This document shows positions 1,750 through 58,387 of a stretch of DNA of 64,000 nt, one piece after another. The stretch spans positions 15,345-79,344 of the forward strand of contig VEMY01000008.1 of assembly GCA_009711825.1 (NCBI GenBank), given 5' to 3'. Made by a program: the position numbers and the translations under genes. Numbering within the stretch: the first letter of the stretch is position 1; each line of letters begins with the position of its first letter. Source of the DNA: Bacillota bacterium (GTDB taxonomy: Bacteria; Bacillota; Proteinivoracia; UBA4975; VEMY01). The notes beneath the pieces were generated by a model, which saw nothing but the letters and a program-made list of their open reading frames with translations, had not been told where the DNA came from and did no database searches.

Positions 1750-2106
1750 TTAAAACCAGCGCCGGACCCGAATAGTTGTCCCCTTGCCGGGCACGCTCTT
1801 AACCTCCGCCTCATCCACCAACATACCGACAATGGTAAGCCCGGAACCATATCCCGACACTCCGGCCAGGTCACCATAATATTCTTCCAATTCCTCCCTG
1901 CGCGGTTGCTGCAGCAGCCCCTCCACCTGTCGGACAGTTTCACGGTCCATACCAACACCATCGTCATCAACCTTGATTTCGATATTGTCCGCCCGGGCCC
2001 TGACCTGAACATCAATTTTTCCCGCTCCAGCGTTAAAAGAGTTGCTGACTAATTCGTCAAGAATTCCCCGTGCCCATCTGCGTTCACTTGCCTTGATCTT
2101 AGTCAT
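1750..2106 (-). CDS. anti-sigma regulatory factor-like HATPase (Ser/Thr kinase RsbW/SpoIIAB-like)
   Basis: 118 aa with HATPase_c-like motifs (ILDELVSNSFNAG..., DDGVGMD, GYGSGLTIV). Confidence 0.5.
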   Translation of the reverse strand: MTKIKASERRWARGILDELVSNSFNAGAGKIDVQVRARADNIEIKVDDDGVGMDRETVRQVEGLLQQPRREELEEYYGDLAGVSGYGSGLTIVGMLVDEAEVKSVPGKGTTIRVRRWF

Positions 2107-9296: not shown

Positions 9297-9399
9297 CCTG
9301 AAGCCCCAAGAAAACAGCAATCAATCGCAAAAGCCGCACCCAGACGGATGCGGCTTTTCATTACGTCCCCGAGTGGCATTGCCGAATATGTCTCAGCAA

Positions 9400-12247: not shown

Positions 12248-13108
12248 TTATTCCAGCCAGCCGTCCACTACGTCCCGGTTTGCTTCCATCCAGGCCTGGG
12301 CCGCTTCGTTATTGTCATCGTATTCTTCCATCATACCAATCAGGTCGCCCAACTGCTCGGCGCTCAGGTAGTAATTGTCCAGGAAGCTCTGCACAGCTGG
12401 GTTGTCGCTGGCAAAATCCATGCGGGTAATGGTGTTAATGGTTTCAGCACCGCCATACACGCCTTTGGGATCCTCCAGGAATTTCAGGTCGAAATCAGCG
12501 AATTTCCAGTGGGGAGTCCACCCGGTGACGACAATCCACTCTTCGTTCTGAATCGCAGTTCTCAGTTCGGCAGTCATCGCGGCATCACCGCTGGCCACCA
12601 GTTCAAAGTCCAGGCCATATTCATCAAGGGCAGTATCGGTTGCGCTCATGATGCCGGCGCCTGGATCGATGCCAACGATACGACCTTCAAATTGATCAAC
12701 GTGATCGTTCAACTCTTCGATAGAGTCAATATCCACATAAGTCGGTACTACCAAACCAATCCTGGCGTCATGGTAGTTGGGACCCAAGTCGACAACTTCG
12801 TCTTCCAACTCGCCGAAATACTCGGCATGGGTTCCAGGCAGCCAGGCGCAGACAATAAAGTCAACATCGCCGGTGGCTACACTTTGCCACATCGGAGCAG
12901 CATCCAGATCATTCAGATTTGCTTCGATACCCAGTTCAGTCTCAATGATATTCGCTGCCAGGTAGCTACTGGCAGTAGCGCAGGCCCAGTTTACATAGCC
13001 AATTTCTACTGATTCCTCGCTGCCGGTATCGCAGCCGATTGCAGCGACACTGAGCATCAAGACCAAACCTAAAACACCTAAACCTTTCAAAAACCTCACA
13101 AATAACAA
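12248..13108 (-). CDS. opuAC: glycine betaine/proline betaine ABC transporter substrate-binding lipoprotein (OpuAC), copy 1
   Basis: 286 aa; lipobox AAIGC; IGYVNWACATASS..., WLPGTHAEYF, WKFADFDLKFLEDP are typical of OpuAC/ProX. Confidence 0.85.
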   Translation of the reverse strand: MLFVRFLKGLGVLGLVLMLSVAAIGCDTGSEESVEIGYVNWACATASSYLAANIIETELGIEANLNDLDAAPMWQSVATGDVDFIVCAWLPGTHAEYFGELEDEVVDLGPNYHDARIGLVVPTYVDIDSIEELNDHVDQFEGRIVGIDPGAGIMSATDTALDEYGLDFELVASGDAAMTAELRTAIQNEEWIVVTGWTPHWKFADFDLKFLEDPKGVYGGAETINTITRMDFASDNPAVQSFLDNYYLSAEQLGDLIGMMEEYDDNNEAAQAWMEANRDVVDGWLE

Positions 13109-13143
13109 ACCTCCAGTTAATGTATTTATATCAGGCCCGGACT

Positions 13144-14025
13144 CTAGTTTTTACCAGAGCCCTGGGTCAGCCTGTCAAGAATAATTGCAATCACGACAAC
13201 AGCAATTCCACCTTCAAATCCCTTGCCCACATCCAGGCTGGAGATGCCGTCCCGGACAACCGAGCCAAGACCGCCGGCACCAATCATCGAGGCGATAACT
13301 ACCATAGAAAGGGCCAGCATAATACACTGGTTGACACCGGCCATAATTGTCGGCATTGCCTGGGGCAGTTGAATTTTAAAGAGCAGTTGATGCCAGTTGG
13401 AGCCATAAGCTTCACCGGCTTCTATCAGCTCCACGGGCACCTGACGGATACCGAGGCTGGTGAGCCGGATTGCCGGTGGCATAGCAAAGATAATCGTCGC
13501 AAACACTGCCGGCACCGAGCCGATCCGGAAAAAGAACACAGCCGGGATCAAATAGACAAAAGCCGGCATCGTCTGCATAAAGTCGAGAATCGGCCGTACG
13601 ATGCTGTTGACCGTTTTGAATTTGGCGGCCAAAATACCCGTGGGGACACCAATTACCAATGCAATCACTGTCGCAGTGATAATCTGAGCCAGGGTAATCA
13701 CGGCATAATCCCAGAGCTGGATGTTGGCAATGAACAAAACACCCAACAAACTGAAAATAGCCACACCGCGCCCGGCGATGCGCCAGGCAATCAGGGCAAT
13801 GATGATTGCAACACCCCAGTAGGGCACAAAGCCAATAATTGCCTCTAATAAATCCACCATCCAGCTGATGCCGGTGCGAATCGCGGCAAACTGGTTGCCG
13901 AAGGTATCCATCAGAAAATCGACAAATACATTCACCCACTCGCCTACCGGCAAGCGGAGGGTCGTAACCCATTCGTACGCATCGCTAAAAAAGCTGGCAG
14001 CAAAAATGTTAGCTGTCATTCTCAT
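13144..14025 (-). CDS. opuAB: glycine betaine ABC transporter permease (OpuAB), copy 1
   Basis: 293 aa; ABC permease with EAA-like loop (EAGEAYGSNWHQLLFKIQLPQAMP). Confidence 0.85.
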   Translation of the reverse strand: MRMTANIFAASFFSDAYEWVTTLRLPVGEWVNVFVDFLMDTFGNQFAAIRTGISWMVDLLEAIIGFVPYWGVAIIIALIAWRIAGRGVAIFSLLGVLFIANIQLWDYAVITLAQIITATVIALVIGVPTGILAAKFKTVNSIVRPILDFMQTMPAFVYLIPAVFFFRIGSVPAVFATIIFAMPPAIRLTSLGIRQVPVELIEAGEAYGSNWHQLLFKIQLPQAMPTIMAGVNQCIMLALSMVVIASMIGAGGLGSVVRDGISSLDVGKGFEGGIAVVVIAIILDRLTQGSGKN

Positions 14026-15214
14026 CCTCCCCCCTGTCAGGAATCAGGGCCTCTAGCACAGAACCCCGGACAATGATTCCCAACAAACGCTTCTGCTCGT
14101 CAACTACAGCCAGAGGGATGGACGTATTGACCGTTAATTCGATGAGCTCAGAGATGCTGGTCTCTGGAGTGACGGTATTGAGCTCATTTTTAATTATATC
14201 GGTCAGGTCTTTTTTGCCGGCCTCAATTGCCGCGTAGACATCATCAATCTGAACAACTCCGATAAGTTTGCGCCGCTCACCGGTAACAAACAAGAAGTCG
14301 ACACCATATTTCTTCATTTCCTTGAGGGCAAGTCTCGGTCCCTGGTTCTCGTTGACAGTGGTCCAAGGCTTAGTCAGAATGTCCCCGGCAGTTAGGACTT
14401 CAGAACGGTTGACTCCCTGGACAAACCGTCTTACATAGTCATCTGCCGGGTTGGTGAGAATCTCCTCGGCGGTTCCTATCTGCACAGTCTTACCGTCTTT
14501 CATCAGCATAATCCGGTCGCCTAGCTTCAGAGCCTCGTCCAAATCATGGGTGATAAAAACAATCGTCTTCTGCATCTGGCTCTGCAGATCCAAAAGCTCA
14601 TCCTGCATGTCGTTTCGAATCAGGGGGTCCAAGGCGCTAAAAGCCTCATCCATTAAGAGAATTTCCGGATCATTGGCCAGCGCCCGGGCAAGTCCCACCC
14701 GCTGCTTCATGCCACCGCTCAATTGGTCGGGATAGCTAGACTCATAGCCCTCGAGACCAACAAGACTGAGGGCGTCCTGGGCCTTTTGCTGCCGCTCTTC
14801 CTTGTCAATGCCCTGGATTTCCAAACCGTATTCAGTATTCGCCAGCACAGTCCGATTGGGTAGCAAGGCGAAATTCTGAAACACCATGCTCATGCTGGTG
14901 CGTCGGGTTTGCCGCAACTGCTTTTTATCCATCTTTAAAATATCTTCTTCGTCGTTCAGCAGTACCTCGCCCCGAGTCGGTTCAATCAGGCGATTCAAAC
15001 AACGAATCAATGTAGATTTGCCGCTGCCGGACAAGCCCATGATCACGAAGACTTCCCCTTGCTTAACGCTGAAATTGGCGTTGTCAATACCGACAGTCAA
15101 TCCCGTCTTATGTAGAATTTCATCCTTTGTCAGCCCTTTAGCCAACAAGTCAAGGCCCCGTTTGGGGTTGGGGCCAAAGATTTTGTACAAGTTTTTAACA
15201 GTTAGTTTATTCAC
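14009..15214 (-). CDS. opuAA: glycine betaine ABC transporter ATP-binding protein with tandem CBS domains (OpuAA), copy 1
   Basis: Start set to GTG 15212-15214 (RBS GGAAGGAGG), aligning with the copy-2 start MVKLAVKNLYKIFG; Walker A GLSGSGKST, signature LSGGMKQRVGLARAL, C-terminal CBS pair. Confidence 0.85.
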   Translation of the reverse strand: MNKLTVKNLYKIFGPNPKRGLDLLAKGLTKDEILHKTGLTVGIDNANFSVKQGEVFVIMGLSGSGKSTLIRCLNRLIEPTRGEVLLNDEEDILKMDKKQLRQTRRTSMSMVFQNFALLPNRTVLANTEYGLEIQGIDKEERQQKAQDALSLVGLEGYESSYPDQLSGGMKQRVGLARALANDPEILLMDEAFSALDPLIRNDMQDELLDLQSQMQKTIVFITHDLDEALKLGDRIMLMKDGKTVQIGTAEEILTNPADDYVRRFVQGVNRSEVLTAGDILTKPWTTVNENQGPRLALKEMKKYGVDFLFVTGERRKLIGVVQIDDVYAAIEAGKKDLTDIIKNELNTVTPETSISELIELTVNTSIPLAVVDEQKRLLGIIVRGSVLEALIPDRGEDENDS

Positions 15215-15419
15215 AACCGGCCTCCTTCCCAGAAACACAATCTTAAGTTTAACAGTCCAGACAAGCACCGTCAAAATGGACCTGCCGTAGCATATTCCAA
15301 TCCAGTTAACTGAGCGATGCTCATAACCATATAGGTAGCGTAGACTCAGGATTCGTAGCGTATTATGCTATATTTCTACCCTTATGTTGGCACTGTCAGA
15401 ATTAGACTAAAAATCGTAC

Positions 15420-15452
15420 ATAAAAAAGCGGCACAGCTTGTGCCGCTTTAGC
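15420..15452 (-). terminator. terminator after opuAC copy 2
   Basis: GCTAAAGCGGCACAAGCTGTGCCGCTTTTTTATG on the minus strand. Confidence 0.7.
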
Positions 15453-15453
15453 G

Positions 15454-16368
15454 CTACTCAGGTAGCCATCCATTAACCACTTCACGATTTTCGTCAATCC
15501 ATTGCTGGACTGCCTCATCGATATCATCGATATCCTCAATCATTCCCATCAAACTTCCCAGTTGTTCGGGAGTCATGAAAAAGTTCTCCAGGAACCTCTG
15601 GACGCGAGGATTGTCCTCAGCAAACCCTTCCCGGGTGATAGTAAAAATTGATTCTTCGCCACCATATACATTCTCTGGATCCTCCAGGAACTTGAGCTCA
15701 AACTCAGCAAACTTCCAATGCGGGGACCAGCCAGTGACAACAATCCATTCCTCATTATCGATTGCGGTTTGTAGTTCCGCCGCCATTGCTGCATCACTAC
15801 TATCAACCAAGGTCAAATCCAGTTCATAAACCTCGATCGCCTCTTCGGTGGCGCCCATAATCCCGGCGCCGGCATCGATTCCGACAATCCTCCCCTCAAA
15901 TTGCTCCGCATTTTCATTGAGCTCAGTGATGGAGTCAATTTCCACATAGGTGGGAACCACCAAACCAATCTGTGCACCCTGGTAATTCTCTCGGACCCGG
16001 ACCACATCATCTTCCAGCTCCGCGTAATATTCCGAGTGTGTAACCGGAAGCCAGGCGCTGAGAATGAAATCCAAATCCCCGGTGGCCAAGCTCTGCCACA
16101 TCAGGGCAGCGCCCAGGTCTGTCAATTCAACCGTAACATCTTCCATATCTTCTTCCAGGATTGTTTGCACAAGATGTCCGGTGGCAGTGGCGCAGGCCCA
16201 GTTGACGTAACCGATGGTAACGTCTTCCGGCTCCACTTGTTCACCGCCGTTATCCGGGGGTGGCTCGATACCATTATCCTCGGGCGGAGTATCGGCCCTT
16301 GGCCACATAAATATCGCCAGTGCCACCAATCCCACTACAATTAAACCAATAAGCCACGACTTGTTCAT
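15454..16368 (-). CDS. opuAC: glycine betaine ABC transporter substrate-binding protein (OpuAC), copy 2
   Basis: 304 aa; about 65% identical to copy 1 over the binding domain (IGYVNWACATATG..., WKFAEFELKFLEDP). Confidence 0.85.
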   Translation of the reverse strand: MNKSWLIGLIVVGLVALAIFMWPRADTPPEDNGIEPPPDNGGEQVEPEDVTIGYVNWACATATGHLVQTILEEDMEDVTVELTDLGAALMWQSLATGDLDFILSAWLPVTHSEYYAELEDDVVRVRENYQGAQIGLVVPTYVEIDSITELNENAEQFEGRIVGIDAGAGIMGATEEAIEVYELDLTLVDSSDAAMAAELQTAIDNEEWIVVTGWSPHWKFAEFELKFLEDPENVYGGEESIFTITREGFAEDNPRVQRFLENFFMTPEQLGSLMGMIEDIDDIDEAVQQWIDENREVVNGWLPE

Positions 16369-16389
16369 TGCTCAATATCCTCCTTGAAA

Positions 16390-17283
16390 TTAGTTGCGGT
16401 ACCCCTTACTACTTCCCTTGCCCTGGGTCAAACGGTCCAGGATAATCGCAATAATCACCACCGCCAACCCTCCCTCAAAGCCCATGCCGACATTGAGACG
16501 ATCGATACCTGTCAGCACCACCGACCCTAAGCCGCCGGCGCCAATCATTGAAGCGATGACAACCATCGACAATGAAAGCATAATACATTGATTGATTCCT
16601 GCCATGATTGTCGGCAACGCCTGGGGCAGCTGCACTTTAAACAATAGCTGGTACCAGTTGGAGCCGAAGGCCTCACCGGCCTCAATCAGTTCCTGGGGAA
16701 CCTGACGGATACCGAGACTGGTGAGCCGAATCGCCGGCGGCATCGCAAAAATAATCGTCGCGAATACGGCCGGCACCGCCCCAATTCGAAAGAAGAACAC
16801 CGCCGGTATCAGGTAGACAAAGGCCGGCATCGTTTGCATCAAATCCAGTAGCGGTCGCAGCACAGTATTTACTGGCCCAAATTTGGCGCCCAGAATCCCC
16901 AGGGGAACTCCAATTAACAAGGCAATCAGGGTGGCGGTAATAATCAGCGCCAAGGTGCTGACTGTCGCCGGCCAGAGACCGATATTTGCAATCAACAGCA
17001 CTCCCAAAAACGCAAATATAGCTTCTCCCCTGCCTGCCAGCCGCCAGGCCAGCACAGCGATTACAAGCGCCAGTGCCCAGAAGGGAAATAACCCCAAAAC
17101 GTCAGCCAGCAATTCCACCAGCCAGGAGATGCCAGAACGGATGGCATCGAACTGGGCGTTGAAGGTATCCGTTAACCAGTCGATGAACGCAGCAAACCAA
17201 TCGCCGATGGGAACCTGGTATTCCTGGAATCGCTCCAAAAAAGTTGTCTGCAAGAATATGTTACTCATCTTCATCTGGCTCAC
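16390..17283 (-). CDS. opuAB: glycine betaine ABC transporter permease (OpuAB), copy 2
   Basis: 297 aa, paralog of 13144-14025. Confidence 0.85.
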   Translation of the reverse strand: MSQMKMSNIFLQTTFLERFQEYQVPIGDWFAAFIDWLTDTFNAQFDAIRSGISWLVELLADVLGLFPFWALALVIAVLAWRLAGRGEAIFAFLGVLLIANIGLWPATVSTLALIITATLIALLIGVPLGILGAKFGPVNTVLRPLLDLMQTMPAFVYLIPAVFFFRIGAVPAVFATIIFAMPPAIRLTSLGIRQVPQELIEAGEAFGSNWYQLLFKVQLPQALPTIMAGINQCIMLSLSMVVIASMIGAGGLGSVVLTGIDRLNVGMGFEGGLAVVIIAIILDRLTQGKGSSKGYRN

Positions 17284-18466
17284 CCCTTTCCGGGATCAGG
17301 GCTTCCAGCACACTGCCCTTGACGATGACCCCTTGCAGACGCTTGTTCTCATCGACAACTGCCACCGGCACAGAGGACCCGACTGTCAGTTCAATCAGTT
17401 CTGAGATGCTTGTATTGGGCGCCACCGTGTTCACAACATCCTGCTTGATAATCTGCCTCAGGTTCTTGTCGCCCCTTTCAATTGCCTTAGAAACATCATC
17501 AATCAGAACCACCCCAGCCAGCGCCCGGTGCTCTCCCAGCACAAACAGGGATTCTGTTCCATACTTTTTCATTTCTTTGAGGGCAAGCCGCGGCCCCTGC
17601 TGAAATGATACTGTAGACCAGGGTTTGACCATGATGTCCCGGGCGCTGAGGACCTCGCTGCGATTCACGCCCTGGACAAAGCGACGCACGTATTCATCAG
17701 CAGGGTTGGTAAGGATATCCTCGGCGGTGCCGATCTGCACCGCTCGGCCATCCTTCATCAGCATGATACGATCTCCCAATTTCAAGGCTTCGTCCAGATC
17801 ATGGGTAATGAAGATAATAGTTTTGTTCATTTCATCCTGAAGCTCCAATAATTCATCCTGCATGTCGCCGCGAATCAATGGATCAAGGGCGCTGAAGGCT
17901 TCATCCATCAGAAGAATTTCCGGATCATTGGCCAATGCCCGGGCCAAGCCCACACGCTGTTTCATACCGCCGCTGAGCTGTTCGGGAAAGCTCTCTTCAT
18001 AGCCCGCAAGGCTAACCAGTTCCAGAGATTTCATCGCTTTTTCCTGGCGAGTGCTTTTATCCACACCCTGAATTTCCAAACCATACTCCACATTTGCCAG
18101 CACCGTCCGGTTGGGCAGGAGCGCAAAGTTCTGAAACACCATGCTCATTTTGGTGCGGCGCATCTCCAGTAATTCCTTTTTGCTCATCTTAAGAATATCA
18201 ATATCATCCAGGATGATTTCGCCGGCAGTTGGCATAATCAGACGGTTGAGGCAACGCACCATTGTGGACTTGCCACTGCCGGAAAGTCCCATGATTACAA
18301 AAACTTCACCCTGCTCAACCTCAAAACTGGCATCATTAATACCCACTGTCAGCCCAGTTTTCTTAAGAATCTCTTCCTTTCCCAATCCCTTTTTTAACAG
18401 ATCGAGTCCGCGCTGGGGATTGGGTCCAAAAATCTTATATAGGTTTTTTACTGCCAATTTGACCAT
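17261..18466 (-). CDS. opuAA: glycine betaine ABC transporter ATPase with CBS domains (OpuAA), copy 2
   Basis: 401 aa; MVKLAVKNLYKIFG, Walker A/B, signature motif, CBS pair; RBS GGAGGAC upstream. Confidence 0.88.
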   Translation of the reverse strand: MVKLAVKNLYKIFGPNPQRGLDLLKKGLGKEEILKKTGLTVGINDASFEVEQGEVFVIMGLSGSGKSTMVRCLNRLIMPTAGEIILDDIDILKMSKKELLEMRRTKMSMVFQNFALLPNRTVLANVEYGLEIQGVDKSTRQEKAMKSLELVSLAGYEESFPEQLSGGMKQRVGLARALANDPEILLMDEAFSALDPLIRGDMQDELLELQDEMNKTIIFITHDLDEALKLGDRIMLMKDGRAVQIGTAEDILTNPADEYVRRFVQGVNRSEVLSARDIMVKPWSTVSFQQGPRLALKEMKKYGTESLFVLGEHRALAGVVLIDDVSKAIERGDKNLRQIIKQDVVNTVAPNTSISELIELTVGSSVPVAVVDENKRLQGVIVKGSVLEALIPERGEPDEDE

Positions 18467-35526: not shown

Positions 35527-35559
35527 TTCAATCACCACCAGGTGCCCACCCGGGGACGG
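35527..35559 (-). repeat. REP-like palindromic element (core GGGGACGGAGGT on plus strand), tandem copy 1
   Basis: GTGCCCACCCGGGGACGGAGGTTCACTGGGCAC; 7-bp arms GTGCCCA/TGGGCAC flank the conserved 12-mer. Confidence 0.85.
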
Positions 35560-35591
35560 AGGTTCACTGGGCACTGCCCACCCGGGGACGG
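35560..35591 (-). repeat. REP-like palindromic element, tandem copy 2
   Basis: TGCCCACCCGGGGACGGAGGTTCACTGGGCAC, a direct tandem duplicate of the previous copy. Confidence 0.85.
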
Positions 35592-35604
35592 AGGTTCACT
35601 GGGC

Positions 35605-35647
35605 ACTTTCACTAATCTTGAACAAAGAAAAACCGGGCGAGCAAGAT
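35605..35647 (-). terminator. terminator after lgt
   Basis: GGACCGGGTTGAGTATCTTGCTCGCCCGGTTTTTCTTTGTT on the minus strand. Confidence 0.6.
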
Positions 35648-35649
35648 AC

Positions 35650-36402
35650 TCAACCCGGTCCTTGATATTCGTTTTCTCCCGCAGGGGACAATCGCAGCAA
35701 CACAACAGCCAAAGCTATCATAGCCAGGGCCATAACCTGCGACGGAGAGAAAACCCCTATCCCCGCACCCCGCACATCACCGCGGAAAAATTCCATCAGA
35801 AAACGGAACAGCCCGTAAGCGAACAGATACCTGGCCGCATTGGCACCGGGACGCCTGAGCAACCAGCCAACCAACAAAAATAGAAAGCCTGCTTCGAACA
35901 ATTGAGTGGGCAAGACTGGCCCCCCGTGGTGCAGAAACGGAGGCGAACCCGCCGGAAACAAAACCCCACCCCAAGCGACTGGACTTCCATAACAGCAGCC
36001 GGCCAGAAAGCAGCCGATGCGGCCAAACCCATGTGCAATCACCAGACAGGGGGCAATTAGTTCGATATCTTCTAGTAAATACTGGCGGGACAGAAGAAGC
36101 AAGTATAAGAAACAGAAGCTAAGCCCGCCAGCCAACAAACCGCCATAGAAAGTCAGGCCACCGAAGGACAGGGGTCTTGCGTGCACTAAGCTGTCAAACA
36201 CCGCGGCGCCAGCAAACCCGAAGATGATTGCCGCGCCCATGACGAAGGTCAGGCGATCATGATGGCCGGGAGGTCGAAAACTCTTTGCCGTCAACCTTGT
36301 CCAAAGCAAAAAGGCGCAGACCATCCCTAACCCGATAAGCAGGTTATACATCGGCACGACTAAAAAGAAATGGCCGAGATTCAGGTTAAGTTCTGGCAGC
36401 AT
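35650..36402 (-). CDS. lgt: prolipoprotein diacylglyceryl transferase
   Basis: 250 aa; hallmark GRIGCFLAGCCYG motif and Lgt TM topology. Confidence 0.88.
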   Translation of the reverse strand: MLPELNLNLGHFFLVVPMYNLLIGLGMVCAFLLWTRLTAKSFRPPGHHDRLTFVMGAAIIFGFAGAAVFDSLVHARPLSFGGLTFYGGLLAGGLSFCFLYLLLLSRQYLLEDIELIAPCLVIAHGFGRIGCFLAGCCYGSPVAWGGVLFPAGSPPFLHHGGPVLPTQLFEAGFLFLLVGWLLRRPGANAARYLFAYGLFRFLMEFFRGDVRGAGIGVFSPSQVMALAMIALAVVLLRLSPAGENEYQGPG

Positions 36403-41892: not shown

Positions 41893-42618
41893 TCATGACT
41901 CCGGGGTGGTTTCTGACCGCTCCAGACGCGCTAAGCAATCATTTACATACTCCAAATGCGACTGCATGCGTCTAGATGCTTCTTCAGCATTCCCGGCGGC
42001 AATCGCCTCATAGATGCCCCGGTGCTGACTTATCAGGGTTTGCTGATTGGCCGGCTCCATCAGAATCCGGGACCGGGTATATTTGATGCTCTCATCGATG
42101 AGGTCGGAGATGGAATTGATGATGCTATAGAGCAGGCGGTTGCCGGTGGCCCGGGCAATTGTATAATGTAGTTCCTTGTCTAGGCGCACATTTTGCTCCT
42201 CTTCCAGCTGAAAGCGCTCCAAATTCTCTACAGCTGCGCCGATTGCTTCAATTTGCTCCTGATTGGCGTTTTTTGCTGCCAGAAAGGCGCTGTTTGTCTC
42301 TAAAATCATCCGGAATTCCAGAATCTCCTGGGGCGGAGTTTGCTCCAACAAAAAGATGATGGACAGGGGCTCCAGCAGGTTGCGGTCTACCTGCTCGCGG
42401 ATAAAATTCCCCTCGCCATGGCGACTTTCCACCAAACCGATGATCTGTAACGCACTAAGGGCCTCACGGATGGAGGTTCTACTCACCTGTAGCTGCTCCA
42501 CAAGCTCCCGCTCAGACGGTAGTTTATCGCCCCGCTTCAGCTCCCCGCTTTTAATCATCGCCTTGATTTGTGCGATTACTTGCTGATAGACTTTCACATC
42601 TTTAATCGGCGTAAAAAT
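41893..42618 (-). CDS. GntR family (FadR/FCD subfamily) transcriptional regulator, likely lactate-responsive (LctA/LldR-like); start codon uncertain
   Basis: wHTH (LPSERELVEQLQVSRTSIREAL) plus FCD domain; RBS GGAGGTGA at 42630-42637. No ATG in range; start is probably a non-ATG codon near 42615-42620. Confidence 0.7.
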   Translation of the reverse strand: MFTPIKDVKVYQQVIAQIKAMIKSGELKRGDKLPSERELVEQLQVSRTSIREALSALQIIGLVESRHGEGNFIREQVDRNLLEPLSIIFLLEQTPPQEILEFRMILETNSAFLAAKNANQEQIEAIGAAVENLERFQLEEEQNVRLDKELHYTIARATGNRLLYSIINSISDLIDESIKYTRSRILMEPANQQTLISQHRGIYEAIAAGNAEEASRRMQSHLEYVNDCLARLERSETTPES

Positions 42619-44545: not shown

Positions 44546-44642
44546 CTCGCAAACTAATTGTATTATACAAATAGTTTGTTGTCAACCTTTTCTTTTTAAA
44601 AATAACCGGTGCCAGCGACACCGGGTAAGTTGACGTGTCGAT

Positions 44643-44675
44643 TTTGCCCATCTAACCTCCGTCCCCGAATGGGCA
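44643..44675 (+). repeat. REP-like palindromic element, 54 nt upstream of the DUF2249 start
   Basis: TTTGCCCATCTAACCTCCGTCCCCGAATGGGCA. Confidence 0.85.
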
Positions 44676-44728: not shown

Positions 44729-44956
44729 ATGGGCACCATACAAGTTGATGTCCGCTCCCTTGCCCCGGCGCAAAGGCACAGCACAATCATGGAACGCTTT
44801 CACTCCCTCAAGCCTGGCCAGGCAATGGAGCTAATCAATGACCACGAACCTAAACCCTTGTATTATCAGTTTCAAGCCGAATATCCCGACACCTTCGACT
44901 GGGAGTACCTTGAGGAAGGGCCCGAGGATTGGCGGGTAAAAATCACAAAGAAGTAA
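44729..44956 (+). CDS. DUF2249 family small protein
   Basis: 75 aa; DVRSLAPAQRHSTIMERFHSLKPGQAMELINDHEPKPLYYQFQAEYPDTFDWEYLEEGPEDWRVKI fits DUF2249; RBS AAGGAGG. Confidence 0.65.
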   Translation: MGTIQVDVRSLAPAQRHSTIMERFHSLKPGQAMELINDHEPKPLYYQFQAEYPDTFDWEYLEEGPEDWRVKITKK

Positions 44957-44957
44957 C

Positions 44958-45078
44958 TGCCCATATGGGGACGGAGGTTTGTTGGGCACTTTCCGACAGA
45001 GAAAAGGCCGGGAAAGCACCCACACAACCCGGCCTCTATTTTCTGCATTCTCCCCCCAGGCGGACTTGATTCCTGCGG
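44958..45078 (-). repeat. composite ~120-bp element: REP-like palindrome plus bidirectional terminator hairpin plus conserved tail; copy 1
   Basis: CTGCCCATATGGGGACGGAGGTTTGTTGGGCAC, then AAAAGGCCGGGAAAGCACCCACACAACCCGGCCTCTATTTT, then ...AGGCGGACTTGATTCCTGC; about 90% identical to 45726-45845. Confidence 0.8.
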
Positions 45079-45241
45079 GCGCTTAAGCGCTCTCCAGTGC
45101 AGCTGTGGCCTGCATTTTTGCTGACAAAGGCAATCACAAGCGACGCAATCCGCCTACTTAAATTATGTGGAGAGTTAGTAGCGCCACAGCAACAGTTTCT
45201 CCAGCTGCGCTGCAGCCACAGTCAGGGGTGGCAAGACTAAT

Positions 45242-45324
45242 ATGCCCATGAAACCTCCGTCCCCGTTTGGCCATTAACACCGCCAGTTCGAATTTGCCCA
45301 TCTAACCTCCGTCCCTGAATGGGC
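45242..45324 (+). repeat. two REP-like palindromic elements (45242-45273 degenerate; 45292-45324)
   Basis: TGCCCATGAAACCTCCGTCCCCGTTTGGCCAT ... TTTGCCCATCTAACCTCCGTCCCTGAATGGGCG. Confidence 0.8.
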
Positions 45325-45330
45325 GCTCCG

Positions 45331-45732
45331 TTAGGTTTCCAGATTGTGCACCTGGGTTGCGCGGCTGACCATTTTGGGATCATGGCTGACTACAATCACT
45401 GTCTTACCACTTTGGTGAATTGAGCTTAGCAGGTCCAGGATGATATCGCCGGTCTTTTGATCCAGGTTGCCTGTCGGTTCATCGGCAAGTATTAACTCAG
45501 GAGAGTTTGCCAGAGCCCGGGCAATTGCCACCCGTTGCTGTTCTCCGCCAGACAATTGCCAGGGGTAATGCTTTCGTCTATGGGACATGCCCATTTGCTC
45601 CAGCAGTTCGTCAACCCTTTGTTGGGCGGCATGCTTATCAATGCCGGCCAACAACAGCGGGACGAGAATGTTGTCCTCAGCATTGAACGAATTAATCAGG
45701 TTAAAAAAACTAAATACAAAGCCGATGCCCAC
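45331..45732 (-). pseudogene. 5'-truncated ABC transporter ATP-binding gene (FtsE/LolD-like) retaining Q-loop, signature, Walker B and H-loop but no Walker A
   Basis: 133 aa ORF: ...[15 protein letters not shown]...[12 protein letters not shown]...VVSHD; the reading frame begins exactly where the composite repeat at 45726 abuts. Confidence 0.65.
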
Positions 45733-45845
45733 ATGGGGACGGAGGTTTGTTGGGCACTTTCCGACAGAGAAAAGGCCGGGAAATCATCCACACAACCCGG
45801 CCCCTATTTAGTGCATTCGCCCCCTGGCGGACTTGATTCCTGCCG
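45726..45845 (-). repeat. composite ~120-bp element (REP-like palindrome plus terminator hairpin plus tail); copy 2
   Basis: ATGCCCACATGGGGACGGAGGTTTGTTGGGCAC...AAAAGGCCGGGAAATCATCCACACAACCCGGCCCCTATTT...GGCGGACTTGATTCCTGCC. Confidence 0.8.
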
Positions 45846-45862
45846 GAAAACGTCCCCGGTGG

Positions 45863-46846
45863 CTAGCCGGCGCAGGTGCTGCAGTTGACGCTTTGCTGCT
45901 TGGCGCCGCAGCGGTCGCCCCAAACGGCGACAATTTTGCCATCCATCTTCACCTGGATGATTTCGCAACAATTGCTACAGCCGTCACACTCATAACTCAC
46001 CGGCTCGAAATGCAAATCCGCGGCGCCAAATCCCCGAAAGTTGGTGGCTTCGCCGGTCCGCTCTACATGTTCCCGGGCGAGGATGGCGCTACCGATGGCG
46101 CCCATAATATTAAAGTTTTCCGGGATGATTACCTGATGGCCCACCTCCTGCTCGAAGGCGGCCTTGATGCCGCTGTTGGCGGCCACACCACCCTGGAACA
46201 CAAAGGGCGGTTGCAGGGTTTTGCCCCGGCCAAGGTTGTTAATATAATTACGGACAAGCGCCTCGCACAGCCCCTTGATGATCTCCGCCTTGGAAAAGCC
46301 AAACTGCTGCTTGGCAATCATGTCGGATTCGGCGAACACGGTACAGCGCCCGGCAATCCGCACATCCCGCCGGGCGCTGGCGGCCATCTCGCCAAACTGT
46401 TCAATCGGAATCGCCAAGCGCTCGGCCTGATGGTCCAGAAAGGAGCCGGTGCCAGCAGCGCAGACAGTGTTCATGGCGAAATCTACGACCATGCCGTCTT
46501 CTATAACAATAATTTTCGAGTCCTGGCCGCCGATCTCAAAGATTGTGCGCACATCGGGCACAACATTGGTGGTGGCCACCGCATGGGCGGTGATTTCATT
46601 CTTGATTACATCGGCGCCGACCATGACGCCAATCAGCTGGCGACCGCTGCCGGTGGTACCCACGCCCCGGATCTCAACATCTCCGGGCAGGGCCACAGCG
46701 GCTTTTTTCAGGCCACGCTTTACCGCCTCCAGGGGTTGACCGCTGGTGCGGACATATTCGCTGTAGAGCACCGAAAATTCCTCGTCTATACAGACAATGT
46801 TGGTGCTGACCGAGCCGACATCGATTCCAAGATAGACATTACGCAT
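45863..46846 (-). CDS. BadF/BadG/BcrA/BcrD-type ATPase (CoA-substrate-specific enzyme activase, HgdC-like) with C-terminal Cys-rich tail
   Basis: 327 aa; LGIDVGSVSTN... acetate/sugar-kinase fold ATPase; C-terminal CDGCSNCC...CG...CSTC. Confidence 0.65.
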   Translation of the reverse strand: MRNVYLGIDVGSVSTNIVCIDEEFSVLYSEYVRTSGQPLEAVKRGLKKAAVALPGDVEIRGVGTTGSGRQLIGVMVGADVIKNEITAHAVATTNVVPDVRTIFEIGGQDSKIIVIEDGMVVDFAMNTVCAAGTGSFLDHQAERLAIPIEQFGEMAASARRDVRIAGRCTVFAESDMIAKQQFGFSKAEIIKGLCEALVRNYINNLGRGKTLQPPFVFQGGVAANSGIKAAFEQEVGHQVIIPENFNIMGAIGSAILAREHVERTGEATNFRGFGAADLHFEPVSYECDGCSNCCEIIQVKMDGKIVAVWGDRCGAKQQSVNCSTCAG

Positions 46847-47942
46847 GTTGCTTCACCCCGTCGTCAAACTTTTTACGGGCGATAAGGTCGATAAAGGCCT
46901 CCACCCGGGTCTGGATATTGGCAACCCCGGTCTGCTCATCCAAGGACAGAGTCATCACCGGAATCCCGTGTTTTTCTGAAATCGCCGGTATGATACTCTG
47001 ACTGACCAATTCCGGCAGGCATCCAAAGGGCATCAAATGTATCACGCCGTCAAAACCCCGCTCGGCATAGTCGACAATATGACCCACTGTCTGGATGGCA
47101 TGGCCGCCGATTATCATCGGGATATACGGTCGGCCTTTTTTGATTGCCTTTTTTTCATGAGTCCAGTAATTCAGCGGGCCGGGCAGGAAGTTGTACTCTA
47201 CCCAGCCGGTCAGATACTGAGAGCGCTCCACTTCGCAGCCCAAATTGCCTAGAGTCTCTTCCAAATGCATATTGATTGAAGGTTCCATTACTACATAGAT
47301 CTCGCCCACCAGGCCGATGCGCAGGCGGCGACTGGTGTCTGCCCGCAAGGGGATGCTGTCCAGGAGCTCGTTCCCCTCAATGTAGGCCTGTTTCATCTCG
47401 GCAACTGACTGGGCTTTGTCAAACATAGCAGTTATTTTCCGCCAGGCCTGGGTGCAGTCGCCCCGGTTTTGCTCATAGGCCCGCAGCGTATGAAGACGCT
47501 TGTCCAGGTTGTCCAGCATCCGCATCATCCGGTAAACGCTGGTCAGGACGCTGCCCACTCGCAACACCGAACTGCCGGCCCTGAGCCGCTTTAGAGTTGT
47601 GAGGAAATCCTGAATATCATCGAATATCGAGTCGAAGACGATAAATTCAAGATTATGGCCCAATTGTTCCAGTATCCGACGGTGCACCTGATTATAGTAA
47701 CCAGCGCGGCAGGGGCCGTGGCCACCGGAAGTGATCACCACTTCGGCGCCCATTTCCGCGGCCTCAATATAGGTGCCGGTAATCATCTTCAGCGGCACAC
47801 AGGCAAATTCCGGGCTGTATTTTGCCCCCAAACTTATGGTCTTTTTGGTGGGCGGGGGCGGCATAATTACCTCATGGCCCAAAAGCTCCGCTATTTTTTT
47901 ATAGATTATTGTCGATCCCATATAGGGAAAGGTTACCTTCAT
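46839..47942 (-). CDS. 2-hydroxyacyl-CoA dehydratase-like (HGD-D/DUF2229 family) protein
   Basis: 367 aa; family typically paired with BadF-type activases; conserved Cys (PFGCLPE). Confidence 0.55.
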   Translation of the reverse strand: MKVTFPYMGSTIIYKKIAELLGHEVIMPPPPTKKTISLGAKYSPEFACVPLKMITGTYIEAAEMGAEVVITSGGHGPCRAGYYNQVHRRILEQLGHNLEFIVFDSIFDDIQDFLTTLKRLRAGSSVLRVGSVLTSVYRMMRMLDNLDKRLHTLRAYEQNRGDCTQAWRKITAMFDKAQSVAEMKQAYIEGNELLDSIPLRADTSRRLRIGLVGEIYVVMEPSINMHLEETLGNLGCEVERSQYLTGWVEYNFLPGPLNYWTHEKKAIKKGRPYIPMIIGGHAIQTVGHIVDYAERGFDGVIHLMPFGCLPELVSQSIIPAISEKHGIPVMTLSLDEQTGVANIQTRVEAFIDLIARKKFDDGVKQHA

Positions 47943-54932: not shown

Positions 54933-54941
54933 AGGGAGGAT

Positions 54942-55397
54942 TTAGCTATCGCCCCGGTAGGTGGCGACTTCCTTCTTGATTTCATCTACATCCAAAACCA
55001 TCTCCATCATGCTGATTTGCTCTTCCCAGATGGCTGGATCAATCTGCTCTTGCAGCTCAAAAATATGAAACACTGGGAGTTCCAACTGAACTCCCGCCAA
55101 TGGACCGGCGAAGGTGGGGTCGCCGCTGGTCACTGTCTCGGCAGCCAGGCCGCTGGCTTCCGCCTCGGCCCCTCCCAATACAACAACCAATTGCTCACGG
55201 CCATACTTTTCGGCCAGAGCCTTGACCCGCGCCTGATTTTCCAGATCCATGGCGCCTGCTGCAGTTCAGACAAAACATTCAGTTGCAGAGAAAACTATTT
55301 CCGCGCCGGCAGCTTCCAGACATTCATTGATTGCCGGCCCGGGCAATCCATCCCGGTCGCCCAGGACAATTGCCTTCTTGCCTTTTAAGTCAATCAT
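54942..55397 (-). CDS. grdA: glycine/sarcosine/betaine reductase complex selenoprotein A (GrdA) with in-frame UGA selenocysteine codon at 55266-55268
   Basis: Start ATG 55395-55397 (RBS AAAGGAG): [61 protein letters not shown]... matches the invariant GrdA CFVUTAAGAMD motif. The ORF track shows only the post-UGA part (54942-55250). Confidence 0.85.
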
Positions 55398-55433
55398 CTT
55401 AGTACTCCTTTCTCAGTTTCGAATTTGTGCTAA

Positions 55434-56744
55434 TTAATATGCTTCCGCGAAGAAGCGGCTGTGCCCCGACTGATTGCCGGAACAGTATAGCAATGTGGTG
55501 GTGGGAAATTCAATTGGGTCAAGAGCGTCAGGGAACCGCCCGCCGGCTTCTTTATCAAGACGAAGCTTAGGGCCCCCAACAACATTATCCATCCGGGGCA
55601 GCTGCACCGGCTTCTCAATGCTGGAGCCGCTGACAATTGCGTCGGCCTCAGGGACATCGTCAACCAGGAGTATTCCCTCGGTTCCATCAGCGCCGCCGAA
55701 TTCAAAGGTTACGGTGGAAGCCTTGATCCCAGCCTTCTCCGCCAGCTGGATTGTCAGCATGCCGTCGGTGGCAGCGTTGCCACCACCTTCCCAGGCCATG
55801 ACAAGTCCGTCGGCCTTGAGCATCCGGGCCAGCTTCACACAGACCCCGGCGCAACGCACCTTATGCCAATGGGTGGGGTTGTGGCTGCGGGAGAAAATGA
55901 CGCCCTTGAAGTTCAAATCCTTGCCGTGACGGCGGTAGAGGTCCAACAGAATCGGGTGATTCACATGTAGATAGGTGGGAACCTTAAAGGCTGGCCACAC
56001 ATAGTTTCCGCTGACAACGCAGCCGTCCAGCATCTCATTTGGATGAAGAACCGTCGGCACCAGCTCCTCCACATCCTTGCCATAGAGGAATGTGTTGGCG
56101 TAGACACCTTGGTTCTGCACCTGCCAGACCAAAACCACGTTGGGAAGATCTGGATTTGTCTCTTCGATGGAGAACAATTCCTCGTCATCTGCTTCACCCT
56201 GAGCTGCCTTAGCAGCCAGGTATTCGGCTACTTTTAAGCTGGAGAGCCGGATATCCCGGTCATACTCTTCAGCAGATTTGCCGGGTTTCAGCTCATAGGT
56301 CATTACCAGATTCACAGTCTCCGAAAAGGGAGTGATCCCCTTGTACGGTCCTGTCATATCCATGATTGCTTCCCGGGGATACAAGAGGCCGCTGCTGGCA
56401 CTGGCGCTGTCCCAGGGCAAGGGCGCCGACTGCATGACGGTAAAACCGTCTAAAACAGCGGTAGTGCCTTCGCCTATCATCTCCGGCGAGCCGAAGAATC
56501 CGGAATATGGCACGCCGCGGCCGTCAAGCCTGGCCATAGGCTGCAATGTATCCAAAAGGTGAATTATCCGCGTGGACTCGCCCGGGTGGACCAAATGGAA
56601 CTCAATTCTTTCGATATTTTCGGTCTGTTCGGCGGCCAGTCGCTCAATCTCTTCTTTATTTATGGTCAGCTTGCCCGATTCCAGGGCTGTTTGAGCGCCC
56701 CAGGCGGCAGACTGAACCCGATAGTATTTTCTGGTCAGTTCCAT
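55434..56744 (-). CDS. grdE: glycine/sarcosine/betaine reductase component B proprotein subunit (GrdE/GrdG/GrdI family)
   Basis: 436 aa; Gly_reductase family architecture, positioned 3' of the selenoprotein B gene. Confidence 0.7.
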   Translation of the reverse strand: MELTRKYYRVQSAAWGAQTALESGKLTINKEEIERLAAEQTENIERIEFHLVHPGESTRIIHLLDTLQPMARLDGRGVPYSGFFGSPEMIGEGTTAVLDGFTVMQSAPLPWDSASASSGLLYPREAIMDMTGPYKGITPFSETVNLVMTYELKPGKSAEEYDRDIRLSSLKVAEYLAAKAAQGEADDEELFSIEETNPDLPNVVLVWQVQNQGVYANTFLYGKDVEELVPTVLHPNEMLDGCVVSGNYVWPAFKVPTYLHVNHPILLDLYRRHGKDLNFKGVIFSRSHNPTHWHKVRCAGVCVKLARMLKADGLVMAWEGGGNAATDGMLTIQLAEKAGIKASTVTFEFGGADGTEGILLVDDVPEADAIVSGSSIEKPVQLPRMDNVVGGPKLRLDKEAGGRFPDALDPIEFPTTTLLYCSGNQSGHSRFFAEAY

Positions 56745-58081
56745 TATCTTTCCTCCTTTTCCAACCGGACATGAAACAGTGTCGGCTCTTCTACCGGTGT
56801 TTGCAATGCCTCCACAGCCTTCAGGAGCATTTGCTTCTGGAACTCTTTCTCCCGGTCAGCCGGTAGTTCCGGCGCTCCTGCCGGCGATGTGAACTGGTTG
56901 CCGGCAATGACCCGGTTGGCCCCTACCGACAGGGCAATGGATGTAAAGGCGGTGATCAGGACAGCAGAGATGCCCACACGTTCGAGTTCCTTGGTAATCG
57001 TTGCACCGCAACGAGTACAAGTACCTCACGTGGAAGTAAGAATCGCTGCCGGCACACCCGCTTCCAGAAGCTCAGCGGCGATTTGCGCGCCTAATCCTTC
57101 ACTGGTCTTAATGTTGGTGCCAACACCAGCGGTCGAGTAGAACTTGGGATAAACGCGGCCAATCTTCCCTTCCTGCTCCAAAGCGCGCAGGGGGCTATAA
57201 GGCACTACCCGGGACGGGTCTTCATTAACCAAAGTAGTGTCGAAACCACCGTGGATAGACTCATACTCGCCGGCAGCTAACTCTTCCAGTCCTTCCAGGC
57301 TGTAGCTGCCGTAGCTGGTGGAGAAGGCCTGCTTTAACCCATCCGGGTTGCCGGTGGGCACCAAAGCGCCGGTTGTAATCAGGGCAAATGTTTTGGTTTC
57401 AGGCTGCTCAAGAACCGGTGCTGGTGGCACCTGCTCAAAGCCGCGCAGCGGCACTTCGGTCTCATATTCTTCGCCCCGCAATTTCTTAAGCAACAGTTCC
57501 ACAGTCCGTTGGGCTGCAGTCTTTTCATGCCATTCGTTGTAGCGATAGCCCCGGGGGAAGTAACCTTCCAGACGGGCGGGCCCAACTTCCTCTCCCTTTG
57601 CCAGCTTGAGGGCAAATGCGGCCAGCGGTGGCAGGGCCTTACGCATACCGGCTGCTGTTTCCGGTGTGCGGATGATATAGTTATCAGATACAAACATTGG
57701 CACCGCCGGGTTCTCCCAATACATGGCGGTTACTGCGGGAATCCCAAACTCCCGACGCACAAAATCTACGAACTTGCCGCAGGCAACACCGTAGCGCCCA
57801 GCGTTGAAGGCGGGCCCGGCAATCACTACGTCAGGCTTGACCTCCTGAATAATTTCCCGCAGGCGAGGCAATAATCCCTCGAATTTGTCATCATCATTAA
57901 AATAGTTGTCACCGCAGGCAATGGTTTTTACCACTTCCATCTCATCCTGCCAAAACTTATCCATACCGAGAGCCGGCCCCAGCTTTTGGTCGTATTCCTG
58001 TAACCCAATATCTGCTTTGTCTTCGCCGCCAATTCCGGCGTAAAACTGATTGATGTAGTACAAGGCTCTTTTCTTAGACAT
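56744..58081 (-). CDS. grdB: glycine/sarcosine/betaine reductase component B selenoprotein (GrdB/GrdF/GrdH family) with in-frame UGA at 57026-57028
   Basis: The 351 aa ORF ending AAILTST is followed, in the same frame, by TGA and a 94 aa continuation (GTCTRCGATITKELERVGISAVLITAF...) that is the ORF-track 56744-56977 entry. U-x-x-C-x-x-C context; total about 445 aa, typical for GrdB. Confidence 0.8.
56999..57013 (-). ncRNA. SECIS-like hairpin 12 nt downstream of the grdB-like UGA
   Basis: Minus-strand CGTTGC-GGT-GCAACG (6-bp stem, GGU loop) at the spacing expected for a bacterial SECIS. Confidence 0.5.
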
Positions 58082-58099
58082 TGACTGACCTCCTTTAAT

Positions 58100-58387
58100 C
58101 TAGCCGCCGGCCATCGGCGGCAGAAATTTCACGTAATCTCCGTCCTGCAGGGAGGTGGCCAGCTGCTTGGAACCAAGAATATTATTGGCGCCCACCCAGA
58201 TCAGGGCCTGCAGCTGGTCGTTTGTCGCAGCCTCCCGGGCCACTTCCCGGTCAAACCGTTCCCCCAGCTGTTCTCCCAACTGCGCCAGCAGCTCGGCAAC
58301 AGTGCTGCCCTCAGGCAAGGTCACCGTAAGTTCCGGTGCCGGCGCATATTCCTGAAAGAAGGAGAAAAAGCGAACCTTTATTTCCAA
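58100..58387 (-). CDS. MoaD/ThiS family ubiquitin-like sulfur-carrier protein
   Basis: 95 aa ending in ...PPMAGG (C-terminal Gly-Gly). Confidence 0.7.
   Translation of the reverse strand: MEIKVRFFSFFQEYAPAPELTVTLPEGSTVAELLAQLGEQLGERFDREVAREAATNDQLQALIWVGANNILGSKQLATSLQDGDYVKFLPPMAGG

Follow-up and report, generated by a model that had tools for sequence, protein, structure and literature searches.

A REP-like palindrome fused to a predicted terminator at the breakpoint of a truncated ABC ATPase gene in an uncultured Bacillota lineage

How does a gene come to be cut exactly at the edge of an intergenic repeat? The question is raised by a locus within a 64,000-nt stretch (hereafter, the window) of contig VEMY01000008.1, which belongs to a metagenome-assembled genome (MAG) of a Bacillota bacterium (assembly GCA_009711825.1). 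Here, two copies of a ~120-bp composite unit, built of a palindrome resembling repetitive extragenic palindromic (REP) sequences, a hairpin and a conserved tail, enclose an incomplete gene for an ATP-binding cassette (ABC) ATPase. An earlier note, drawn from the sequence alone, had taken the unit for a mobile, or formerly mobile, element that inserted into or recombined within the transporter gene. On balance, we consider it probable that the unit is a repeat element carrying a terminator, and that a resident ABC operon was destroyed by a rearrangement ending at the palindrome edge of the second copy.

The composite unit and the broken ABC ATPase gene

The two copies, designated R1 (44958-45078, plus strand) and R2 (45726-45845, plus strand), lie 768 bp apart and are 92.4% identical over 119 nt with one indel, an identical block of 53 nt being common to both. 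The earlier description of two ~90% identical segments of ~120 bp was thus correct, coordinates included. Each copy opens with a 31-nt palindrome, TGCCCA-N3-GGGGACGGAGGTT-N3-TGGGCA (44958-44988 in R1, 45726-45756 in R2), which in R1 is separated by a spacer from the second part, a hairpin of the form GGCCGGG-15 nt-CCCGGCC. In both copies, AGAGAAAA stands before this hairpin and a T-rich stretch after it; the stems are located at 45006-45012 and 45028-45034 in R1, where they enclose a 15-nt loop, and at 45774-45780 and 45796-45802 in R2. The third part is the tail GGCGGACTTGATTCCTGC (45059-45076 in R1, 45826-45843 in R2). The joint presence of palindrome, hairpin and tail in each segment, also claimed before, was confirmed, and shuffle counts exclude chance: they predict 0.00 matches for the hairpin pattern and 0.09 for the tail, each of which occurs twice in the window. 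No known RNA family was matched in Rfam at E <= 1 between positions 42000 and 48000. Global folds of the whole unit or of a 257-nt spacer were no better than those of shuffles (z from -1.5 to +0.65); only the local hairpins matter.

Between the two copies lies a 133-aa open reading frame (ORF; 45331-45732, minus strand) that matches the Pfam family ABC_tran (PF00005) over positions 61-136 of 137 only, in agreement with the proposal of a truncated ABC ATPase devoid of Walker A. Homology to intact ATPases, as determined by tblastn with five full-length homologues and by blastn against their loci, begins at base 45726, which corresponds to codon 88 of the homologues and is at the same time the outermost base of the R2 palindrome. 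The part derived from a MacB/LolD-type ATPase (45331-45726, minus strand) thus comprises codons from about 88 to 224 with the native stop, and the break lies precisely at the edge of copy 2, which the earlier note had placed next to the ORF start. The GTG start of the ORF is situated within the R2 palindrome, its first two "codons" (GTG GGC) being palindrome sequence, and is not preceded by a Shine-Dalgarno sequence. A displaced segment encoding Walker A was named in advance as a finding that would speak against truncation; with the five homologues as tblastn queries, no Walker A or N-terminal segment was detected in any frame across the window. The N-terminal half of the gene was likewise found neither elsewhere in the window nor beyond the other end of R2.

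Identity between the remnant and the C-terminal 60% of MacB/LolD/FtsE-type ATPases (PF00005) amounts to 73-75%, and the LSGGEQQR signature, Walker B and the H-loop (VSHD), all three of which had been recognized correctly, are kept. The Q-loop, which had been listed as present too, was misread: the remnant carries Ser where 59 of 59 homologues carry Gln, the underlying change from TTTCAGTTTTTTAAC to TTTAGTTTTTTTAAC being readable either as a -1/+1 indel pair or as three substitutions. Compared with these ATPases, then, it lacks residues 1-87 with Walker A, the Q-loop Gln, the permeases and start signals. In the intact relatives that we examined, the ATPase gene is always the last of a three-gene operon, following two permease genes whose products measure ~375 aa and bear FtsX/MacB_PCD signatures; six of these permeases, used as tblastn queries, had no match in the window below E = 0.3. 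The gene contexts of the intact ABC homologues include no DUF2249 gene, no activase gene and no palindrome.

Could the ORF encode a functional stand-alone protein, such as a degenerate ABC-domain regulator? No stop interrupts its reading frame, 41 of the 42 highly conserved columns are preserved, and GenBank lists it, on a 97-kb contig, as an ordinary coding sequence (MTI94599.1, "ATP-binding cassette domain-containing protein"). Yet the exact 133-aa sequence is a singleton among 5.8 billion proteins searched, and no bona fide stand-alone family of this length, the other finding named in advance as contrary, appears among the 120 best matches. The relatives among these measure ~206-233 aa, except for two of 150-152 aa encoded on contigs shorter than 1 kb. 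The product would also have to function with neither Walker A nor the Q-loop Gln and with no partner permease in the window, from a gene that starts inside a repeat, has no Shine-Dalgarno sequence and lies immediately downstream of the predicted terminator of R2. We regard such a protein as extremely improbable.

The codon usage of the remnant, which ranks 23rd among 53 window genes, and its GC content at third codon positions (0.56 vs. 0.58 +/- 0.06) are typical of the host, which argues for a native gene that probably died fairly recently and is now a dead remnant. A foreign origin was rejected on the same two measures. An origin from a paralogue was rejected as well, since its identity to the other ABC ATPases of the window, two of the OpuA type and one PstB, is no higher than 30-36%. 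The closest full-length relatives, of ~224 aa, are at best 75% identical, and none of them comes from the source MAG.

On the minus strand, the order of the locus is: a gene for a BcrAD/BadFG-type acyl-CoA dehydratase activase (45863-46846, minus strand; Pfam PF01869, E 9.5e-44), R2, ABC codons 88-224, two palindromes, 164 bp of unique sequence, R1 and a convergent 75-aa DUF2249 gene (44729-44956, plus strand; Pfam PF10006, E 1.1e-33). The activase gene is the last of a DUF2229/HGD-D/activase operon, its homologues reaching at most 78% identity, and its stop codon is 17 nt from the end of the R2 tail. The first base of R1 is positioned 1 nt past the DUF2249 stop codon (44954-44956), so that copy 1 indeed serves as the 3' end of that gene. 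The two palindromes (minus strand) are located at 45243-45273, with one mismatch to the consensus, and at 45295-45325, with two mismatches and 5 nt past the remnant stop. The 164-bp spacer (45079-45242) contains no recognizable gene or RNA: it had no Rfam match, its two 47-aa ORFs had no Pfam match, nothing similar to it occurs elsewhere within the window, and it folds no better than shuffles. A perfect 12-bp palindrome, GCGCTTAAGCGC, is placed at 45079-45090, directly at the inner boundary of the R1 tail. Antisense to the activase gene runs a 350-codon ORF (45833-46885, plus strand), the longest there; it has no Pfam match and is almost certainly spurious, but could mislead gene callers.

As the source is a MAG, the contig might have been mis-threaded through the repeats, with the remnant misplaced or chimeric as a result. 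An independent k=31 assembly of SRR9198955 (Logan), in which this organism is present as well, indeed breaks at both units, and exact look-ups in its index retrieved neither the 133-aa product nor the last gene of the window. However, the ABC coding side and the repeat have no k-mer in common, so the junction of ABC gene and palindrome is not producible by mis-threading, and an R2-specific variant (C at 45732) is located 6 nt from this junction. Moreover, the outer flanks in Logan carry the copy-specific variants of the window: one contig (L001) joins the activase gene to R2-specific variants, while another (L002), encoding an identical DUF2249 protein, joins it to an R1-specific variant and ends inside the R1 palindrome. 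Each contig stops at the very point from which R1 and R2 have their 31-mers in common. An assembly artefact is highly improbable in our judgement.

A third copy at lgt and the predicted terminator

We found a third, diverged copy of the unit, R3 (35575-35695, plus strand), which consists of the palindrome, a hairpin ACCGGG-16 nt-CCCGGT and the start of the tail, and whose palindrome stands in tandem with a second one (35543-35573). Outside the palindrome, the local alignment of R3 with R1 reaches a score of 32, compared with 14.3 +/- 2.1 for shuffles, none of 300 of which attained it; the alignment spans the A tract, the hairpin, the T-rich stretch and TTCTCCC-CAGG-GGAC. In the R3 hairpin one stem pair is altered on both sides, from G:C to A:T. 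The left boundary is common to R1, R2 and R3, and the right boundary of R3 falls within ~12 nt of the others. R3 overlaps the end of lgt (35650-36402, minus strand), which encodes prolipoprotein diacylglyceryl transferase: the final 13 lgt codons (LSPAGENEYQGPG) and the TGA stop (35650-35690) come from the R3 tail and the 5' hairpin arm, the stop codon lying inside the hairpin. These codons are located beyond the Lgt Pfam domain, which reaches only to residue 236 of 250. Because R3 occupies an unrelated locus with nearly the same boundaries, the unit appears to be a discrete element that is, or formerly was, dispersed.

The part of the genome readable for copy counts amounts to ~73 kb, i.e., the 64-kb window and 9 kb beyond its left end (Logan contig L013). 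An nhmmer profile of R1-R3 detected no further full unit there, and the 9 kb brought no new copy of either palindrome or unit. Additional full 120-bp copies, for which the earlier note had advised to search, were found in none of the searchable collections, diverged R3 being the only one within the window.

Viewed along the minus strand, the three copies agree in their succession of tail, hairpin, U run and palindrome. The U run is UUUUCUCU in R1 and R2 and UUUUUCUUU in R3, and the hairpins have GC-rich stems of 7-9 bp with energies from -19 to -21 kcal/mol. Each unit is situated downstream of a minus-strand gene, namely the activase gene for R2, the ABC remnant for R1 (at ~250 nt) and lgt, with which it overlaps, for R3. 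These sequence features suggest that the unit acts on the minus strand as an intrinsic terminator; R2 would then provide the 3' untranslated region and terminator of the activase operon. The R1 hairpin folds with -19.1 kcal/mol on the plus strand and -21.1 kcal/mol on the minus strand and has U tracts on both, and R1 is predicted to terminate the convergent DUF2249 gene as well. Accordingly, the attribute "bidirectional", which the earlier note had given to both copies, applies to R1 only: its plus-strand tract, UCUAUUUUCU, is usable, whereas that of R2 reads CCUAUUUAGU. With R3 as outgroup, R1 is seen to keep TTCTCCC, CAGG and ATTTTC in the right-hand part, while R2 carries the changes, and the loss of its plus-strand U tract fits relaxed constraint on a function for which R2 has no use. 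A consensus terminator scan with a loop limit of 3-8 nt did not call the hairpins of R1-R3, because the 15-nt loop exceeds this limit. As for polar silencing of the ABC remnant by the terminator, the suggestion is plausible but moot, since the remnant has no start context and has lost two catalytic motifs.

Origin of the breakpoint

The break coincides to the base with a boundary common to all copies, which implicates the terminus of the element. A simple insertion into the ABC gene does not account for the locus, however. The other end of R2 is 17 nt past the activase stop, and neither the 5' half of the gene nor the permease genes are found there, so at least one deletion or recombination is needed. 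We favor a loss in situ, since codon usage is native, no closer paralogue or donor was found, and the units stand downstream of minus-strand genes. R2 would already have terminated the activase operon, and R1 the ABC operon, when the resident permease-permease-ATPase operon lost its promoter, both permease genes and the first 87 ATPase codons, the endpoint of the rearrangement being the very last base of the R2 palindrome. Most likely, the DNA between the upstream operon's terminator unit and an internal point of the ABC gene would have been deleted. One illegitimate step stimulated by the palindrome may have sufficed, or a copy of the unit may first have entered the gene at codon 88, to recombine later with the copy upstream, R2.

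Several observations weigh against this reconstruction. Microhomology at the junction is at most 1 nt, too little to point to an enzyme or mechanism. The hairpin loop of 15-16 nt is atypical for an intrinsic terminator, and the count of three copies covers only the ~73 kb readable. R1 and R2 are 92% alike but only ~70% alike to R3 outside the palindrome, a closeness that points to recent copying or gene conversion and not to two old independent terminators. Finally, neither an empty site nor an intact locus was found. The flanking operon has 76-78% identity to its nearest relatives, which are not syntenic downstream: there, an unrelated convergent hemerythrin gene, and not DUF2249, follows the activase gene. 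The comparison proposed earlier, for an orthologous locus with an intact ABC ATPase and no element, therefore gave no such case among the nearest relatives.

The copying of the unit to the unrelated site of R3 supports the part of the earlier claim that regards it as mobile at some time, now or formerly. Could the unit, then, be an active non-autonomous element of the REP/RAYT (REP-associated tyrosine transposase) type or similar to a miniature inverted-repeat transposable element (MITE)? In such a scenario, a copy of R1 jumped into ABC codon 88, and an adjacent deletion starting from the tail end removed the upstream DNA to just past the activase stop. The break matches the palindrome terminus of all three copies to the base, 92% identity at a distance of 768 bp is consistent with a recent local copy, and at an unrelated site the unit supplies the 3' end of a gene, lgt. 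Present mobility, in turn, is not supported. The ends of the unit, TGCCCAYATGGGG... and ...GACTTGATTCCTGC, are non-complementary, i.e., there are no terminal inverted repeats, and the flanks of R1 (GTAAC/GGGCG) and R2 (GCCGA/CGGAA) contain none of the target-site duplications whose search had been suggested. Neither the 60 window ORFs of at least 100 codons (Pfam and Logan Pfam annotation) nor the 9 kb beyond yielded a transposase, RAYT or integrase, and we detected no copies besides the three. In addition, the absence of the 5' half of the target requires a second event regardless, and the activase operon must have lost its own terminator and acquired R2. We regard an active element of this kind as possible, though unlikely.

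A related and still more doubtful idea is that of a "portable terminator", a new kind of element whose REP-like head would be recognized and cut at its outer edge by a Y1/RAYT-like single-strand enzyme of this lineage and would bring along a preformed terminator with its tail. If this were true, the element would cap genes with new stops and 3' ends, as at lgt, and kill them by breakage at the head edge, as in the ABC operon.

The arrangement of direct repeats around a unique 647-bp segment is also the product expected of Campbell-type homologous recombination into a single ancestral unit between the DUF2249 and activase genes, with a donor carrying the ABC 3' part, the two palindromes, the 164-bp spacer and a unit copy of its own. 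The outer ends of R1 and R2 abut stop codons as a single intergenic unit would, the 53-nt identical block could mark the crossover, and in the nearest relatives the activase operon is followed by a short convergent intergenic region. On the other hand, the ABC gene of the donor would already have been broken at the palindrome edge, which only relocates the problem. The codon usage of the remnant is native, and database proteins offer no donor locus or closer paralogue (the best full-length match is 75% identical, none is from the MAG). Synteny says little here, as the convergent gene of the relatives encodes hemerythrin and not DUF2249. We consider this insertion very unlikely, and return to the loss of a resident operon as the preferred reading: we see in the locus the unremarkable scar that an earlier rearrangement left precisely at the margin of a palindromic repeat.

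A REP-like palindrome family and its surroundings

The palindrome TGCCCA-N3-GGGGACGGAGGTT-N3-TGGGCA extends well beyond the three units: it is matched 11 times in the window, where shuffles predict 0.00 matches, and partial copies occur besides. The copies start at 9390, 35543, 35575, 36863, 38345, 42770, 42802, 44645, 44958, 45243, 45295 and 45726. All are intergenic relative to the genes called in the window, and 10 of the 11 full palindromes are clumped within 35.5-45.8 kb, none being present in 10-35 kb or 46-64 kb. The stem measures 6-7 bp and the loop 17-19 nt, with a 13-nt loop core, GGGGACGGAGGTT, that is invariant in 10 of 11 palindromes and reads AGGGACGGAGGTT in the eleventh. Doublets are arranged head-to-tail, with a period of 32 nt at 35543/35575 and 42770/42802 and of 52 nt at 45243/45295, and inverted pairs are at least 255 nt apart. 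The flanks define two subtypes, ...TGGGCACTTTC and ...TGGGCAAAnTCGACAC, and several palindromes have unrelated terminator-like hairpins 15-40 nt downstream. In the divergent DUF2249/MarR region, a palindrome (44645-44675, minus strand) is accompanied by a short terminator hairpin (44606-44624; CCGGTGTCGCTGGCACCGG then TTATTTTT), both just upstream of a MarR promoter-like site (44585-44557). Together they could insulate the MarR promoter from minus-strand read-through.

Outside the source genome the palindrome seems to be absent from what is searchable. The 21-mer CTTTCCGACAGAGAAAAGGCC gave a single chance match among GTDB representative genomes, inside an Acidobacteriota coding region, and the source MAG thus lies outside the representative set. 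Among JGI metagenome contigs, the palindrome followed by CTTTC had no match, and the palindrome alone had one chance match without the left arm. IMG/VR yielded no match to the palindrome, distant blastn against plasmid and phage collections yielded no copies, and the core sequence strings retrieved only unrelated primers from the searchable literature.

REPs mark the endpoints of duplications and deletions, and the palindrome studied here likewise stands at a rearrangement endpoint. It resembles the REPs and bacterial interspersed mosaic elements of Enterobacteria and Pseudomonas (PMC3479197, PMC3686654) as a short palindromic repeat, here of 31 nt, present in many intergenic copies, as singles and doublets, often at gene 3' ends beside terminators. 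It differs from them in its stem of only 6-7 bp, its loop of 17-19 nt, the lack of a GTAG-type 5' tetranucleotide, the head-to-tail orientation of its doublets and its host, an uncultured Bacillota lineage. With the REPIN-RAYT systems (PMC3116915, PMC3337134) the unit shares the character of a non-autonomous short repeat with a hairpin head and no target-site duplication, the latter absence being expected for Y1-transposase chemistry. Yet a REPIN is formed by two inverted REPs folding into one long hairpin (PMC3116915, PMC3337134), whereas the doublets here are direct and so are not REPINs. Nor was a RAYT gene seen in the window or the 9 kb beyond. Correia elements of Neisseria and the RUP and BOX elements of pneumococci are intergenic repeats of ~100-150 nt that bring transcription signals, occur at gene 3' ends and disrupt genes. 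The unit described here differs from them in its REP-like head and in having neither terminal inverted repeats nor a duplication of TA or another target; without inverted repeats and duplication, the 120-nt unit is not a MITE or Correia element by definition. The palindrome is best seen as a REP-like repeat particular to this lineage, with one subtype joined to a predicted terminator.

Other parts of the window offered further observations. Two tandem paralogous operons for OpuA-type glycine-betaine ABC transporters (12248-18466), each comprising genes for a binding protein, a permease and a CBS-domain ATPase, repeat with a period of 3.26 kb and ~72-76% DNA identity. A 118-aa ORF (1750-2106, minus strand) comprises nothing but a HATPase_c domain, HisKA and sensor parts being absent, and overlaps the stop of a DUF1576 gene. 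It could represent another case of truncation or else a small kinase-like protein that stands alone. In the glycine/sarcosine/betaine reductase cluster (~54940-58100, minus strand), GrdA is called as two ORFs of 43 and 102 aa and GrdB starts internally, a pattern expected for in-frame UGA codons read, presumably, as selenocysteine.

For annotation, our results mean that a pseudogene label is warranted for MTI94599.1. For the lineage, a poorly sampled branch of Bacillota, they bring to light a previously undescribed REP-like family with the core GGGGACGGAGGTT, one subtype of which appears as a terminator-fused unit. If the full genome showed many copies together with a cognate enzyme, biology of the REP/RAYT type would be extended to a new lineage and a new architecture, while general concepts would stand unchanged even so.

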